A stretch of 64,000 bases of DNA, from assembly GCA_951812955.1 (NCBI GenBank), contig OX638340.1, positions 1,184,001 to 1,248,000 on the forward strand, written 5' to 3'. Shown piece after piece: positions 34,991 to 40,630 of the stretch (position 1 is the stretch's first letter; every line of letters starts with the position of its first letter). Source of the DNA: an uncultured Gemmatimonadota bacterium. Its GTDB lineage: Bacteria; JAAXHH01. Under the pieces are notes generated by a model. That model saw only the letters and a list, made by a program, of their open reading frames with translations, was not told the origin of the DNA and made no database searches. Both the position numbers and the translations under genes were made by a program.

Positions 34991-35074
34991 ACTGGTAATT
35001 CGGCCTTTACTCTCTCGATTAGTTCACGGACCTGGGACTGAAAGTAGCTTATATTAAAAGTTACAATCAGGTTT

Positions 35075-35097
35075 TTCGATTCCCACACGCTCCCCCA
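35075..35097. repeat. Right copy of the tRNA-Sec 3'-end direct repeat (attR-like)
   Basis: ttcgattcccacacgctccccca is identical to 34236-34259 apart from one missing C. Confidence 0.7.
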
Positions 35098-35115
35098 ACC
35101 AAAAAGGAATAACCC

Positions 35116-35724
35116 TTGACCCGAAAGGCCGGTCAACCCGCGACAAAACCTGTCGAACCTGATACACAGCCCGGCATGCCCATGGAAATCCTGGGCATGT
35201 ACCTCTTCATCGCCAGCGAACTGATCATCTTCATCACGCTGCTCTTCATCCTGTTCTGGCTGAGGTCGGGTCTCGTAGCGGAATGGCCTCCACCGGACCA
35301 GCCCCGGCTACCCATCGGGATCACGGGTATAAACACCCTGTTTCTACTGGTAAGCGGCTACACCATGCACCGGGCATACCAGGCCGTGAAGCGGAATGCC
35401 TCCCGCCAGCTGACCCGGTGGCTGATGATAACGTGCGTACTGGGCGTGGTCTTCCTCACGGTCCAGGGCTTCGAATGGATCCGGCTGATTCGCTTCGGGC
35501 TGAGTATGACCTCGAGTCTGTACGGCGCCATGTTCTATTCGATCATCGGACTCCACGCGGTCCACGTACTCGCCACCGTGCTCGTCCTGCTCTACCTCTG
35601 GGTTCGGTCCTCCACCGGCGTCTATACCGCTGATAAACACATGGGCGTCGTACTGGGCTACATGTTCTGGCTCTTCGTCGTCCTCATCTGGCCCATCCTC
35701 TACATCCTGGTCTACCTGGTATAA
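35116..35724 (+). CDS. Cytochrome c oxidase subunit III-family membrane protein (stand-alone)
   Basis: Five TM helices and the IIGLHAVHVLATV motif, comparable to the conserved GxHGxHV region of Cox3/NorE-like proteins. No other oxidase subunits adjacent. Confidence 0.6.
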   Translation: MTRKAGQPATKPVEPDTQPGMPMEILGMYLFIASELIIFITLLFILFWLRSGLVAEWPPPDQPRLPIGITGINTLFLLVSGYTMHRAYQAVKRNASRQLTRWLMITCVLGVVFLTVQGFEWIRLIRFGLSMTSSLYGAMFYSIIGLHAVHVLATVLVLLYLWVRSSTGVYTADKHMGVVLGYMFWLFVVLIWPILYILVYLV

Positions 35725-35882
35725 ACCGACTAACCTGAACACAACGATGGATAGAAACCAAAAAGCTGTGCTATCTATACAACGTGCAAAACCCCCTCAG
35801 AGTATAGGTTTGTTTTCTACACTACACAAATTGGGACAGGTCTGCATTGCGGGGTTAATATGATCACATCCATGCAGAAAAC

Positions 35883-36566
35883 TCAATATGCCAGAACTCC
35901 AGTTTTATCGACAATCCAGTCGATCATGCAGCGGAAGCATGGACACTGTTCGCCACCTCTCTCGTCAAACAAAACTTCTGATAAGTCTGCTTTGTTTAGA
36001 ATGGTGTGGCAGTCCGATATTTCTCGGTAGGATCGTTTAAGTTTGGTACGAAACAACTGCTCAACAATCCTTTTGGGGGGATTGTCTTGGTTTTGTTCTT
36101 CGGGAGGTAGTCGCCAACCCTGAGGTTTGGTGCTCATCTTGAGTTGCGACTGCAGGTGATTCGGTGTTGCGAGAAGCAACATTTCCAAGTCGTGTTTCAA
36201 TGCACTAGGGTAAAATCGAGATAAACAACTTTGAACCTCATTCGGTCTAGCCCGTGCAGGCAATTCCCTCTTCACCAACATTCTCTGTAAGTCTTTAAGT
36301 TCTCGAAGGTTTCTGTGCCTAAACTCTGTATTCTCATAATAACGATTGGGGTAAAGATCGGGTAACCCTACGACAAGATCATTCTCATCATTCAACAGCT
36401 TTTCGGCTCCTCTAGGTCCAATTTTACGGAAAAACTTTGATTTGTTTTCGAGTGAAATCGTCTGTATACCCCATCCATTTACTCTAAGTATTGATATCCA
36501 GTCTCCCCACAGCGCAGATAGCGCTTTACAGTCCGACTTACCTTCCAAGTAGACCCACACCTTCAC
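35883..36566 (-). CDS. DUF4276-like protein (possible Toprim-like partner of the upstream ATPase)
   Basis: 227 aa with N-terminal MKVWVYLEGKSDCKAL, a (V/I)x(V/I)xxEGxxD start typical of DUF4276 and of the Toprim catalytic glutamate. About 47% GC. Lies 150 nt downstream of the ATPase on the same strand. Confidence 0.45.
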   Translation of the reverse strand: MKVWVYLEGKSDCKALSALWGDWISILRVNGWGIQTISLENKSKFFRKIGPRGAEKLLNDENDLVVGLPDLYPNRYYENTEFRHRNLRELKDLQRMLVKRELPARARPNEVQSCLSRFYPSALKHDLEMLLLATPNHLQSQLKMSTKPQGWRLPPEEQNQDNPPKRIVEQLFRTKLKRSYREISDCHTILNKADLSEVLFDERGGEQCPCFRCMIDWIVDKTGVLAY

Positions 36567-36717
36567 GCACCTGCCTCCAGTTCGCCAGATCTATGAAGGT
36601 CGCCTAAGGTTTCGCCGGAGACGTCTTCAAGCATTTGCATCAGTGCGCTGCGACTCGAGGGGCGATACCACCTGACTTTCGAGTCGTCCAACGTGCGAGT
36701 CATAACGGCTACATCAT

Positions 36718-37863
36718 CTATACCAATATACCAAAGCAGTCGAGCAGGTCTGGGCTATGGGTTGTCACGAGCACCTGTGCACGCTCTGCAGCAGACTTGA
36801 TCATTTCCGCCACTATCGGCAACAGGCCGGGATGAAGTCCCAACTCCGGTTCGTCTATAGCTATCAGTGGAGGAGGAACTGGATTCAATAGCGCAGTCGC
36901 CAGACACAGGAACCGCAACATACCGTCAGAGAGTTCCCACAGGTACATGGAACGGGAGATTCCTTTTTCTCGTATCCCGACCAGAGCTTGCGGAGGAGTT
37001 CCGTAGGTAGTTTCGCAATGGATATCCTCGAATGTGGGATACGACACGCGCAGGTATTCGTGTAAGTCCTCTGCAGTCGAACGATAGTCGTATCGTGTCA
37101 GAATTTCGTGTAGCACTGTACCCAAATTGTCACCCACTGACGTCAACATCGTATCCCGTTTTATATCCGCTGGTTTTGATCTAAGCGCAGAAGACCAGGT
37201 GACGTCAAAGCCCGGGTAAAATGCCATACCTGCCAACAAAAACCTAGCGACAGCGGGAATTGGAAACTCATTAAAGAACCTTATCTGGGAAAGTAATAGA
37301 GCCATTTCTTGTTGTGCGGCTATTCCGCGTTCCTGATTCTTTTCTGCCGAACTGGATTCCTGCACCGCAGAAGGTTCGGGCTGCGCAACATCAAAAGGAA
37401 TCAAACGGTGTTTTTCTCTGTCAAATACTTGCCTTCTATACTGTGTTGCCTCCAGAAACTTTAGTGATTCATCATGGCCTGTATACGGATTCAGATTCCT
37501 GAGAACTTCATACTCAGGTTGCATCTGTCCATCCACATTCACTTTCAAAACAACTTCGTACTTTAGTGGGTTATCATTCTGTAGTGGTAGATCATTCCAT
37601 CGAGGAGTCCTTGGTCTACAAAAATCAATCTTCCAACTCAATCGATCAGTGCTGTTGCCCGCCGTAAGCATAGATTGAGCGCCTCGATGCCAACTAAGAG
37701 CAGTTTCTATCGGAAAGTCACAACATTCTCTTATTAACCTTAGGCAATCGATCAGCGAACTCTTGCCGCTAGCATTCGCACCGATTACCACCGTCAAAGG
37801 CTTAAGGTCAGCCTTAAAATCGCTGAGGAGCCGGTAGCCACTTACCTCGATATTCATGATCAT
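36718..37863 (-). CDS. AAA_21/ABC-type ATPase (SMC/OLD-like ATP-binding protein)
   Basis: Walker A VIGANASGKSSLIDCL. ABC signature-like LSDGMLRFLCLATAL. Walker B LIAIDEPELGLHP. H-loop VTTHSP. About 42% GC. Confidence 0.8.
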   Translation of the reverse strand: MIMNIEVSGYRLLSDFKADLKPLTVVIGANASGKSSLIDCLRLIRECCDFPIETALSWHRGAQSMLTAGNSTDRLSWKIDFCRPRTPRWNDLPLQNDNPLKYEVVLKVNVDGQMQPEYEVLRNLNPYTGHDESLKFLEATQYRRQVFDREKHRLIPFDVAQPEPSAVQESSSAEKNQERGIAAQQEMALLLSQIRFFNEFPIPAVARFLLAGMAFYPGFDVTWSSALRSKPADIKRDTMLTSVGDNLGTVLHEILTRYDYRSTAEDLHEYLRVSYPTFEDIHCETTYGTPPQALVGIREKGISRSMYLWELSDGMLRFLCLATALLNPVPPPLIAIDEPELGLHPGLLPIVAEMIKSAAERAQVLVTTHSPDLLDCFGILV

Positions 37864-38182
37864 GATCTACCACCTTAAGCTTACTCTCGAAGGTCCATAG
37901 ATCTTCTACTGAGTTAGAATACGATGCACTCCGCCAGAAGGTATCAAAATCTAGATTCAAATATACATAGTCATTCTTTCAATTACAATCTCGTTGACAG
38001 TGTTGAATCTTGGTACGTCAGAAAGGTCATGAAGACACATGAGAAGATGACTCGGTTGAACCTACAAGTTTACCATTTATTTATTGTTGTAGTTCAGGCT
38101 AATTTCAATCTGTGTTATGGGCATAAAGGAAGATCCAAAAACAGTGGAAGATGAACAAAGCTCACTGAGACATGAAGGTTCT

Positions 38183-39013
38183 TCACCTGAAATCCGCGAT
38201 GGATGAAAGATATTCGTAGCTCTGGCGGGCGGCGTCTTCGGGTTCCATGAGCTCGGCAAAGGCCTGGTGCACGGTGACGTAACCGTCGTATTCCAACTCC
38301 TCAAGCGTCCGCATGATGACGGGGAAATCGATCCCGCCCGTTTCCTGGAGTGGAACCGGATCGTGGGGCGCGGGTCCTCGTACCCAGGTGTTCAGGGTCA
38401 TGGATCCATCGGGATTCAGGCGGTGGTTCTGCAGGTAGACGTTGAAGAGCCAGGGCTCGAAACGCTTTATGGTTTCCGGACCGTAATCCTGGCCGCACAG
38501 ATCCAGGTTCGCCGGTTCGTAGATGATGCCGAAATTCTCGCGACCGACCTGTTTCAGCACCGAAACCGACTCCTCCACGGTTTCAAACAGGCTGCGGGTA
38601 TGAGACTGGTGGGCCAGCCGGATGTCCCGTTCGGCCGCCTCGTCCGAAGCCCACCGCACCCAGGCGATATCTTCTTCCGTCTTCATGCCGATCCGGATCA
38701 GGTCGGCGTCCAGCAATTCTGCCAGGTCCAGGTAGGGCGTGATGTTCCGCAAGGCGTCCGGGGCGTGTTCGTCATTTGCGGGAATGGGGATGTCTCCCGT
38801 AACCATTGAAACGGGGAGATCCCGATCATCGAGGATCTTCCGTACGGCTGTGATCTGTTCCAGCGGCGACTTGATGCCGGCCTGGGAAGCCCGCATGCAC
38901 ATGGCGGAGTATCCGATCTCCAGCGCCAGGTCGGCCAGGTGTTCCATGGATCGGTTGGCTTCTTCCTTGTTCAGAACGGATTCGGCGACGCGTACGGACA
39001 ACGAGAGCTCCAT
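38183..39013 (-). CDS. Sugar phosphate isomerase/epimerase (xylose-isomerase-like TIM barrel)
   Basis: Size and motifs (…IRIGMKTEE…IIYEPANLDLCG…) are characteristic of the AP endonuclease 2 / xylose isomerase-like TIM-barrel family. Confidence 0.75.
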   Translation of the reverse strand: MELSLSVRVAESVLNKEEANRSMEHLADLALEIGYSAMCMRASQAGIKSPLEQITAVRKILDDRDLPVSMVTGDIPIPANDEHAPDALRNITPYLDLAELLDADLIRIGMKTEEDIAWVRWASDEAAERDIRLAHQSHTRSLFETVEESVSVLKQVGRENFGIIYEPANLDLCGQDYGPETIKRFEPWLFNVYLQNHRLNPDGSMTLNTWVRGPAPHDPVPLQETGGIDFPVIMRTLEELEYDGYVTVHQAFAELMEPEDAARQSYEYLSSIADFR

Positions 39014-39093: not shown

Positions 39094-39720
39094 CTAACGC
39101 AACTGTACTTCTGATCCACCCGGCAACTGGTGACCGACACAGGCAAGAACCTGGGCGGCAAAGCGATACGTGAGGCCCCAGAGCACGGGCCCTTCACCGT
39201 CCAGGAGATCGATGGCGCATACTTCCCGTTCTCCCCATTCGCCCACGACTGGGGTAGTCACGTACCGGTTCTGATCCATTAGACCAGCAAGCGGGAACCA
39301 GAATGCGTCCTGGACCTCGTGGTTAAGTGATAACTCGAACCCATGCGTAAGACAAAACACGAAAGCGGCGACGTGCACCTTGCTGAGATGTGTAGCCTGG
39401 TCGTCGAGCCGGCAGACGTAGTCCGCCCCGGTAAGGTCGAGACCGGTTTCCTCCCGCGTTTCACGTATGGCGGTTTGCCGGGGATCGACATCGGTAGCGT
39501 CGATCTTCCCGCCGGGAAAACCGATATGGCCGGACCATGGATCGCCGTCGCGCCGCGCACGCACCAGGAAGAGCAATTCCATTCCCCCAACCGCCTCGCG
39601 CAGAAGGACGGCAACGGACGCCGTGAGCGCGCCGGCGGCGGGGTCCAGCAACCTGGCGCGCCTGACGCGCAGCTTTTCAATCAGTGCTCTTTCTTGAATC
39701 ATCGCACCGCTGCTCTCCAT
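39094..39720 (-). CDS. NUDIX hydrolase (CoA pyrophosphatase-like)
   Basis: NUDIX box GHIGFPGGKIDATDVDPRQTAIRETREETGL. Start set at the ATG that does not overlap the downstream PhyH gene. Confidence 0.75.
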   Translation of the reverse strand: MESSGAMIQERALIEKLRVRRARLLDPAAGALTASVAVLLREAVGGMELLFLVRARRDGDPWSGHIGFPGGKIDATDVDPRQTAIRETREETGLDLTGADYVCRLDDQATHLSKVHVAAFVFCLTHGFELSLNHEVQDAFWFPLAGLMDQNRYVTTPVVGEWGEREVCAIDLLDGEGPVLWGLTYRFAAQVLACVGHQLPGGSEVQLR

Positions 39721-39772
39721 AGGCAGAACATTTCCACTCGCGACCTGTTTTTCGTGTGCGGCTCCCGACGAT

Positions 39773-40630
39773 TCATGACCGTGCGAACACGACCTGGTTT
39801 CGGGGATGGTCGGCGCGCTGGCCCGGACGCCTGTTGCCCAGGTTGGCATCGATGACCGGCCGGTTTTCCTCGCTGCACGCCGAATCGTCGATACAGAGGC
39901 CGTCCTCATAGAACGTGATCCCAATTGCTTCGCGGATGCGGCACGACGTGTTGGCCCGGGCGCCGTGCACGACCCAGTGGCTGTGCAGGGTGGCGTCGCC
40001 AGCGGGAATCTCCTCTTCCACCACGGGGTTCCGCCTAGTGCGGATGTGGCCTTCGAAGTAGGATTCCGATTTGCGGTGGATCCCCCTGGGGCCCAAGACT
40101 CTTGACCTGTGGGTACCGCTGGCGAATCGCGGCGGCCCCATGTCGATAGCGGTGTCCACGAGGGGTATCCACATGGTGAGCACGTTGTCCGAATGAAGGG
40201 GCCAATGCGGACCGTCCTGGTGCCATGGCGTGAGCCAGCTACCGGGTTCCTTGAACATCGCCTTGTCGTAGTAGATGCGCACCGCGTCCACGCCCATCAG
40301 GTCGGCCGCGATCTTCCCGAAACGGGGCGACTGGATGAACCGCGCCGCACGCTCGTCGGCTTCCCTCAGGTTGAAGGTCTGCATGAATACGCGGGAGAAA
40401 TCATCCTCCGGCCGGTCGCTCATCTTTTTCGCCCCGGCAAACCGATTGGCCGTGACCGACTTCAACACTTCGCGGTACACGTCGATCTCTTCCCTTGAAC
40501 AAACGCCACCCAGATGGACGTGGCCGTTCTCGCGGTATTGGCGTACGTGGTCTGCGGTCAGGGAGTATTCCGACGAAAGATCCGGTCTGAGGGTCGGTTC
40601 GCACGTCGTCATGGATAGAAATCCTTCCAC
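39773..40630 (-). CDS. PhyH-family Fe(II)/2OG dioxygenase
   Basis: WHQDGPHWP motif and family-typical length, paralogous to 45681..46529. Confidence 0.8.
   Translation of the reverse strand: MEGFLSMTTCEPTLRPDLSSEYSLTADHVRQYRENGHVHLGGVCSREEIDVYREVLKSVTANRFAGAKKMSDRPEDDFSRVFMQTFNLREADERAARFIQSPRFGKIAADLMGVDAVRIYYDKAMFKEPGSWLTPWHQDGPHWPLHSDNVLTMWIPLVDTAIDMGPPRFASGTHRSRVLGPRGIHRKSESYFEGHIRTRRNPVVEEEIPAGDATLHSHWVVHGARANTSCRIREAIGITFYEDGLCIDDSACSEENRPVIDANLGNRRPGQRADHPRNQVVFARS

Follow-up and report, generated by a model that had tools for sequence, protein, structure and literature searches.

Is the two-gene cassette, low in guanine plus cytosine (GC), that lies within a 64,000-nt stretch of an uncultured Gemmatimonadota genome (contig OX638340.1) a new anti-phage system? 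We call the whole stretch the window and count all positions in it; L-numbers denote related loci or genomes. An earlier note, made from the sequence alone, had described a 381-aa ATPase followed on the same strand, "150 nt downstream", by a 227-aa DUF4276/Toprim-like protein, and had found no described system that it matched convincingly. Our analysis indicates that the cassette is a further, damaged member of a known candidate family, HEC-01, and that it is neither a new system nor linked to the neighbouring tRNA. With a probability of about 0.72, we read it as a HEC-01-type split OLD-like module that was exchanged into a fixed chromosomal slot and is most likely non-functional here, being a recent pseudogene next to an intact nuclease gene. 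Annotation should reflect that what was read as a 381-aa ATPase and a 150-nt spacer is one frameshifted 430-aa gene, and should label the locus a HEC-01-type pseudogene/gene pair.

A frameshift in the ATPase gene

Both open reading frames (ORFs), of 381 and 227 aa, were found on the minus strand (Table 1). The longer one matches the full AAA_21 profile of Pfam (E = 8.5e-36). The Walker A, signature, Walker B and H-loop motifs previously read in it by eye are all there, and their residues do not vary among 38 family members (Walker A G28-S35, S312-D313-G314, D337-E338-P339-E340, H344-P345 and T367-T368-H369-S370-P371). The HEC-01A profiles run about 50 positions past the end of this ORF, and we therefore examined the 151-nt gap between the two ORFs (36567..36717) closely. 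In the other frame, it codes for the C-terminal 52 residues of the ATPase; the supposed spacing of the two genes is thus an artefact.

An exact 8-bp tandem duplication, TTGGTATA present twice, joins the two ATPase frames. When one copy is deleted, a 430-aa ORF results, and its TGA stop and the GTG start of the small gene overlap. In an alignment with L001, the closest relative (96.5% nucleotide identity over 2,367 nt), the extra TTGGTATA is the sole insertion or deletion inside both genes. L001 carries an intact 430-aa ATPase gene with a 4-nt overlap to its 227-aa gene, and the repaired ATPase of the window is 96% identical to that intact protein. Because the duplication shifts the frame, the 381-aa ORF is the truncated product of a 430-aa gene; the public record of the source genome annotates the same truncated product as a gene. 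The concern that either ORF might be a fragment of a larger, degraded one was justified for the ATPase and not for the DUF4276 gene, which is intact.

The lost tail (residues 379–430) includes 13 positions at which the 38 family members do not vary; its final 10 residues form the best-conserved block of the whole protein (0.93), although an embedded ribosome-binding site accounts for part of the constraint on them. Against L001, the ratio of nonsynonymous to synonymous substitution rates (dN/dS) of the ATPase is still low, 0.18–0.21, so any inactivation would be recent. Beyond the frameshift, the ratio is 0.58 for the nuclease gene (22 substitutions) and 0.59 for the ATPase tail (6), which are too few substitutions for any conclusion on relaxed selection. 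We also considered programmed ribosomal frameshifting and rejected it: the 96.5%-identical relative lacks the duplication, we see no evident slippery site, and the frame is contiguous at nearly all other loci.

A gene pair conserved as an operon

A scan of species-representative genomes returned 44 loci, mostly from metagenome-assembled genomes (MAGs) labelled Candidatus Latescibacterota, with some of the remainder from Planctomycetota, Syntrophia, Terriglobia, Ignavibacteria and Sumerlaeaceae. The ATPase gene (A) stands directly upstream of the small gene (B) in 42 of the 43 loci where this could be tested on the contig, with an 80-residue fragment as the exception. At 39 of 45 related loci, the two genes overlap by 4 nt (ATGA/GTGA) behind a preceding CTGGAGGC. 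Both the ATPase-first order and the pairing of an ABC/AAA_21 ATPase with a DUF4276/Toprim protein, as proposed before, are supported. Besides the window, three loci only in this survey have an ATPase frame that does not run contiguously to the overlapping stop: L046 through a frameshift, L042 through loss of the stop and L029 through deletion of the junction; all three have further lesions.

Different lesions are found in five other species-representative genomes (L040:6001-6700, L036:6001-6662, L042:5990-6566, L046:4734-6566 and L029:5990-6582). They affect either gene and comprise a nonsense mutation combined with a frameshift, single frameshifts, loss of the ATPase stop codon, and a deletion of B residues 1–27 that removes the catalytic glutamate. 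Several of these genomes are long-read MAGs, so some of the lesions may be sequencing errors. That five relatives carry independent lesions is consistent with an accessory module that is costly.

In a few loci, a second, distantly related ABC ATPase (29% identical) is encoded within a few kb of the pair (L022:8615-9301, L023:10458-11144 and others). These second ATPases match Old-, GajA-, AriA- or HEC-01A-like models. They are the only defence-type neighbours among the 133 nearest neighbour ORFs of the other loci, for which PADLOC gave about four matches, all of them to other ABC ATPases.

The composition of the pair varies less than that of its hosts. Its GC content is about 47–57% in nearly all of them (L003-L047) and 62% in the two highest-GC hosts, whereas host flanks range from 45 to 69%. 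In most hosts, the pair lies 5–11 points under its flanks; it equals them only in Latescibacterota genomes of about 50% GC, where it is located upstream of ArgJ-aminotransferase-accA. This pattern hints at a donor lineage or at a compositional constraint.

The small protein as a putative OLD-like nuclease

The 227-aa protein passes the Pfam cutoff for DUF4276 (39.5 bits against 30.2), as its N-terminus had suggested by eye. It has 474 homologues at E ≤ 0.001; the best 120 of these are nearly all full length and 56–67% identical, with one exception at 93%. Distant relatives came from a profile search across the whole library, which gave 337 clusters at E ≤ 0.001. DUF4276 is matched by all of 87 diverse relatives, HEC-01B by 66 of them (best 3.1e-21) and OLD-like_TOPRIM by 11. 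DUF4276 (Mad4) has been described as a member of the Toprim superfamily (PMC12065111), and the paper on HEC-01 places it there as well (bioRxiv 10.1101/2024.01.29.577857).

A structural model built from a shallow alignment was poor and its matches were unspecific. The AlphaFold2 (AF2) model built from 87 sequences reached a predicted local distance difference test score (pLDDT) of 96.9 and a predicted template modelling score (pTM) of 0.92. The predicted fold is a three-layer alpha/beta arrangement with a four-stranded core, and its nearest known structures are Toprim nucleases. The top five Foldseek matches are all C-terminal regions of class 2 OLD proteins. Overall, the nuclease domains of class 2 OLD, AriB and GajA come closest, and all of these are anti-phage nucleases. 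The structure prediction suggested in the earlier note as a check for a Toprim fold is therefore in favour of one.

E8, D70 and E128 are invariant in 87/87 sequences. E8 sits at the end of strand 1, where the Toprim glutamate is expected, and is followed by G9 in 85 of the 87; D12, D/E126 and E156 are nearly invariant. The protein of the window keeps all of these acidic residues (E8, D12, D70, D126, E128 and E156). From fold prediction and residue conservation, the assignment as a Toprim/OLD-like nuclease with a variant acidic site holds, as a predicted one.

Relation to HEC-01 and to other two-gene systems

The ATPase matches HEC-01A of the PADLOC database as it is now read (E = 1.8e-49, 166.8 bits), which contradicts the statement that no described system was matched. 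After repair, the best model gives E = 1.9e-54 and 183.1 bits, and five HEC-01A models are covered at near full length (e.g., positions 5-402 of 406). HEC-01, for Hma-embedded candidate 01, combines an ABC ATPase with a TOPRIM protein and is a candidate system in PADLOC-DB v2 (Payne et al., bioRxiv 10.1101/2024.01.29.577857). The cassette shares with it the following: two genes on the same strand, an ABC ATPase (A) and then a DUF4276/TOPRIM protein (B); full-length matches of the ATPase to several HEC-01A profiles, from 1e-39 to 1e-54; and, among the B proteins, a common OLD-like fold of the metal site, in addition to the HEC-01B matches of the relatives. In contrast to HEC-01 as described, the cassette is solitary between housekeeping genes and not part of an Hma system, its ATPase is frameshifted, and its B protein lies at the edge of the HEC-01B models. 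We are confident that the cassette is of the HEC-01 kind.

The architecture had also been said to echo the OLD, PARIS and AbiL two-gene systems, and this was supported, but PARIS, OLD, Gabija, AbiL and Septu each differ from the cassette in a defining component. MADS of P. aeruginosa likewise combines an AAA_21-type ATPase (Mad3) with a DUF4276 protein (Mad4), and MADS defence depends on both of these homologous genes, mad3 as well as mad4 (bioRxiv 10.1101/2023.03.30.534895). However, the match to the NCBIfam MAD3 equivalog reaches 101.5 bits, far under the cutoff of 420, and near the cassette there is no mad1, mad2 or mad5-8, and no methyltransferase. PARIS has the same split, with an ATPase (AriA) and then a Toprim nuclease (AriB), and the AriA profile matches our ATPase, but this profile is a generic AAA_21 of 304 positions. 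AriB is a DUF4435 protein, whereas B gave no DUF4435 match in Pfam and no AriB match in PADLOC. Moreover, PARIS is often carried by phages or satellites, and the present subfamily was not found in the viral, phage and plasmid collections searched.

For OLD, the best sequence match of the ATPase in PDB is the class 1 protein of Thermus scotoductus (6p74, E = 7e-6). Solved structures that can be detected by sequence are limited, for both proteins together, to distant OLD and PtuA matches of the ATPase; a PDB search with the family profile of the small protein gave nothing at E up to 10. For the class 2 OLD nucleases of Burkholderia pseudomallei and Xanthomonas campestris, sequence identity is only 12–16%. 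In OLD and GajA, the ATPase and Toprim parts are fused in one polypeptide, in contrast to the two genes here, and where the canonical motif is DxD, the B protein has P-D-L, together with a D/E-x-E pair that follows strand 4.

Gabija GajA, AbiL, Septu and Menshen share the general combination of an ABC/AAA_15-21 ATPase with a nuclease effector. Partial hidden Markov model matches to GajA, AbiLi, PtuA and NsnB are all much weaker than those to HEC-01A, and those to AbiLi (1.2e-21) and PtuA (9.3e-09) concern only the ATPase motifs. In contrast to Gabija, no UvrD helicase gene (GajB) is adjacent; in contrast to AbiL and Septu, B has no RloB (AbiLii) or HNH (PtuB) match; and the three-gene layout of Menshen (NsnB with DUF4276-bearing NsnC variants) is not present.

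An accessory cassette exchanged into a fixed slot

The GC content of the ORF pair is 47.1%, compared with 58.7–60.6% in the flanks, and the local GC content dips to 40–50% over about 35800..38200. The low-GC block reported in the earlier note is therefore real (45.6% over the cassette), whereas its figure of about 65% for the chromosome is too high, since the window averages 59.3%. In the window, the cassette is surrounded by AP_endonuc_2, NUDIX, PhyH, accA and COX3-like genes. The slot between AP_endonuc_2 and the COX3-like gene, with accA-PhyH-NUDIX upstream, is occupied by the pair in the window, L001, L002/L004, L011, L020 and L040. L024 has the pair with the COX3-like gene downstream, and its contig ends inside the ATPase gene.

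Three kinds of comparison reveal that this slot is variable. First, L020, L048 and L049 have flanks that are 95-96% identical to the window in DNA, or 93-99.7% in protein, and a pair whose identity reaches only 67/63% at the protein level and 67.9% at the DNA level. The similarity to L020 and L048 breaks exactly at 38183, the stop of AP_endonuc_2, and in L048, where the contig is long enough, it resumes at 35720, which is 4 nt inside the COX3-like gene (whose stop ends at 35724). Second, the flanks of L001 are about 85% identical in DNA, yet its cassette is 96-97% identical. The synonymous divergence (dS) between the window and L001 is 0.05–0.09 for the pair and 0.66 for AP_endonuc_2, i.e., 7–13 times lower for the pair. 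Third, in L050 and L051, whose flanks are 86–96% identical in protein, the slot is empty of the pair, and about 0.5 kb with a conserved 86-aa ORF is found instead.

The upstream region follows the cassette: from about 37864 to 38100 it is 93-97% identical to L001, dropping to about 86%, the level of the flanks, nearer 38182, and over 37868..38182 it has no similarity to L020 and L048, the genomes with the other allele. Taken together, the cassette is accessory DNA that was horizontally exchanged into a fixed slot between two housekeeping genes. The suspicion of horizontal acquisition has accordingly gained support from composition, allele replacement, dS and empty slots.

We found no terminal inverted repeats or target-site duplication around 35725..38182 in a repeat search, no integrase or transposase in the ORF list of the window, and no relatives of the pair in the collections of viral contigs, plasmids and phages searched. 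An origin as a mobile element was rejected on these grounds. Since neither such signatures nor relatives in mobile collections were found, exchange through the conserved flanks would be the likeliest route.

We regard the population pattern of this slot as the most interesting by-product of the analysis. Within close uncultured relatives, a single slot displays two alleles of about 67% identity, the empty state and a freshly broken copy, which makes it a small and clean natural example. Together with the damaged copies in five other species, the pattern supports the view of HEC-01-type pairs as costly, rapidly exchanged accessory modules.

The 86-aa ORF (L050:1960-2220, L051:3606-3866 and L002:6810-7070) has a hydrophobic N-terminus followed by a heptad-like charged region. 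In L002/L004, an AbiEi_4 gene, the pair and this ORF are present all together; the ORF has been lost from the window.

Possible function and alternative explanations

By analogy with OLD, Gabija and PARIS, we hypothesize that an intact module would work as an ABC-type ATPase (A) translationally coupled to a small, metal-dependent DUF4276/Toprim nuclease (B). An ATPase oligomer would sense an infection cue or foreign nucleic acid, its ATP binding and hydrolysis would control the nuclease, and the nuclease would then cut nucleic acid, so that phage replication or the infected cell is stopped. HEC-01 as a family is more likely than not anti-phage: with one representative, of cold-seep metagenome origin, E. 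coli B was protected against one or more of the phages T4, T5 and T7 (PMC12881386). The copy in the window is in good likelihood inactive. We consider the module most likely non-functional here because the truncation removes 52 conserved ATPase residues and uncouples the two genes. The good conservation of the subfamily and the high-confidence nuclease model could guide the choice of representatives for testing.

Several observations weigh against this explanation. The duplication may be an assembly error, and the truncated ORF, which keeps the full Pfam AAA_21 domain, may have residual ATPase activity. What we say on the trigger, on DNA or RNA as the substrate, on contact between A and B and on loss of function through truncation is inference. 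In the nuclease, the canonical DxD after strand 3 is replaced by P69-D70-L71, of which D70 alone is invariant, and the B protein matches a single HEC-01B model, PDLC04188, weakly (E = 0.0056). The representative tested by the discoverers of HEC-01, a different one from that of the cold-seep study, gave no protection in E. coli MG1655 (bioRxiv 10.1101/2024.01.29.577857), so that defence is shown for only one member. Finally, the nearest neighbours in 38 other loci are mostly housekeeping genes and not defence islands, and guilt by association with such islands gives no support.

The alternative that survives best, although we consider it unlikely, is that of a two-gene system still at work, either because the duplication is an assembly artefact or because the 381-aa ATPase functions without its extension and the nuclease is translated from its own ribosome-binding site. 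The retention of every catalytic ATPase motif, the intact B gene with all its conserved residues and a GGAGG of its own 7 nt before the GTG, and the low dN/dS of the ATPase are consistent with it. However, the lost residues include family-invariant positions and the best-conserved block, and the three other loci without a contiguous ATPase frame all carry further lesions. An exact 8-bp tandem duplication is atypical as a sequencing error, and the four flanking genes are free of frameshifts relative to L020.

It is also conceivable, and in our view rather doubtful, that the subfamily is a mechanistically distinct split-OLD system with its own trigger and substrate, whose competing alleles are frequently knocked out at fixed chromosomal slots. 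What suggests this is that B is barely recognised by the HEC-01B models and has the variant site E8 / P-D70-L / D126-x-E128 / E156, that the C-terminal extension of the ATPase is strongly conserved, and that the pair stands by itself, as a chromosomal cassette of about 50% GC, in Latescibacterota-type bacteria, while the phage and plasmid collections searched contain no copy of it. A weaker form of this idea takes the 8-bp tandem duplication as a reversible off-switch for a costly nuclease system.

Improbable, on the present evidence, is a role outside defence, as a lineage-typical chromosomal module that is either an OLD/RecF-like DNA-processing device or a selfish, toxin-antitoxin-like addiction pair. 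The concentration of the subfamily in Latescibacterota-type MAGs, often beside the same housekeeping neighbours (ArgJ, aminotransferase and accA), the rarity of other defence genes next to it, its absence from the phage, plasmid and viral collections searched, and the one HEC-01 without defence are in favour of such a module. A conserved housekeeping role is nevertheless argued against by the presence/absence and allele replacement between genomes with 86-99% identical flanks, by the low dS of the pair relative to the adjacent gene, by a GC content that is atypical in most hosts and by the recurrent disruptions in relatives. The protection conferred by one HEC-01 representative and the anti-phage nature of all the closest structures also speak for defence.

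We hold it very improbable that the cassette came as cargo of a genomic island at tRNA-SeC, or that it was orphaned from a larger system, MADS or Hma for instance. In favour, the tRNA and a low-GC stretch next to it are close by, mad3 models match the ATPase, and HEC-01 was first found embedded in Hma systems. Against it, a perfect 22-nt repeat bounds the tRNA-linked insertion and leaves the cassette out, a COX3-like gene of native GC stands between the two, relatives keep the AP_endonuc_2/COX3 slot with tRNA-SeC elsewhere, no integrase, methyltransferase, Hma or MADS genes are nearby, and the MAD3 score is far below its cutoff. We thus retain the damaged, exchanged HEC-01-type module as the best explanation.

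Coordinates and neighbouring features

Table 1. Coordinates, within the window, of the cassette, its borders and the neighbouring tRNA.
Feature	Position	Strand	Basis or remark
Variable cassette segment	35725..38182		2,458 bp, 45.6% GC; bounded by the stop codons of AP_endonuc_2 and the COX3-like gene
Ancestral ABC/AAA_21 ATPase gene, full extent, HEC-01A-type	36563..37863	-	430 codons plus stop after removal of one 8-bp copy
ATPase ORF as now read, 381 aa, ending in ...DCFGILV and stop	36718..37863	-	Motifs and whole Pfam AAA_21 domain kept
8-bp tandem duplication, TTGGTATA followed by TTGGTATA, which frameshifts the ATPase gene	36719..36734	-	Sequence, frame translation
Out-of-frame remnant of the ATPase C-terminus, ending in ...DDVAVMTRTLDDSKVRWYRPSSRSALMQMLEDVSGETLGDLHRSGELEAGA and stop	36563..36717	-	Frame translation
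GGAGG Shine-Dalgarno sequence for the DUF4276 gene	36574..36578	-	7 nt before the GTG start
ATPase stop TGA (intact arrangement), overlapping the GTG start as GTGA	36563..36565	-	Sequence
DUF4276/OLD-like Toprim protein gene, 227 aa, intact, HEC-01B-type	35883..36566	-	Pfam, homologues, AF2 model
AT-rich upstream non-coding region, presumed promoter region	37864..38182	-	37.9% GC; travels with the cassette
AP_endonuc_2 gene (xylose isomerase-like TIM barrel), conserved left border of the slot	38183..39013	-	Pfam and synteny
COX3-like gene, conserved right border of the slot	35116..35724	+	Pfam and synteny; separates the cassette from the tRNA-SeC islet
tRNA-SeC, the only tRNA	34162..34259		The small gene ends 1.6 kb away

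A scan for promoters and terminators gave nothing exceeding the expectation from shuffled sequence; the sole sigma-70-like match, at 37988..37960 in the upstream region, was not above chance.

An Rfam search of 33500..39000 returned tRNA-Sec alone. The earlier note had rightly placed this tRNA close to the cassette; its link to an island hotspot did not hold. The 3′ end of tRNA-SeC is repeated perfectly and directly over 22 nt (34236..34257 and 35075..35096), and the two repeats bound an islet of 839 bp (34258-35096) with 38.9% GC, closed before the COX3-like gene. The cassette keeps its slot in relatives: in L001, tRNA-SeC is some 7 kb distant, and in L002 the genes called within 6 kb do not include it. 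The repeat boundary and the slot shared with relatives make the hotspot argument inapplicable to the cassette.

The islet contains a single ORF, orf170, of 170 aa (34478..34990, minus strand), which has no Pfam, PADLOC or NCBIfam match and no counterpart among the 47 loci searched. As no integrase is present, the islet looks like the remnant of an integrated element.

On the other side of the cassette, the longest NUDIX ORF (276 aa, 39094-39924) overlaps the PhyH ORF (39773-40630) by about 150 nt. Relatives call a NUDIX gene of 164–201 aa, so the true start is probably further downstream. The 3′ end of selB (34028-34063) has an 18-nt tandem repeat that codes for a GDGGQ-type repeat just before the stop codon, and the C-terminus of SelB is its least conserved part relative to L001 (about 71% identity).

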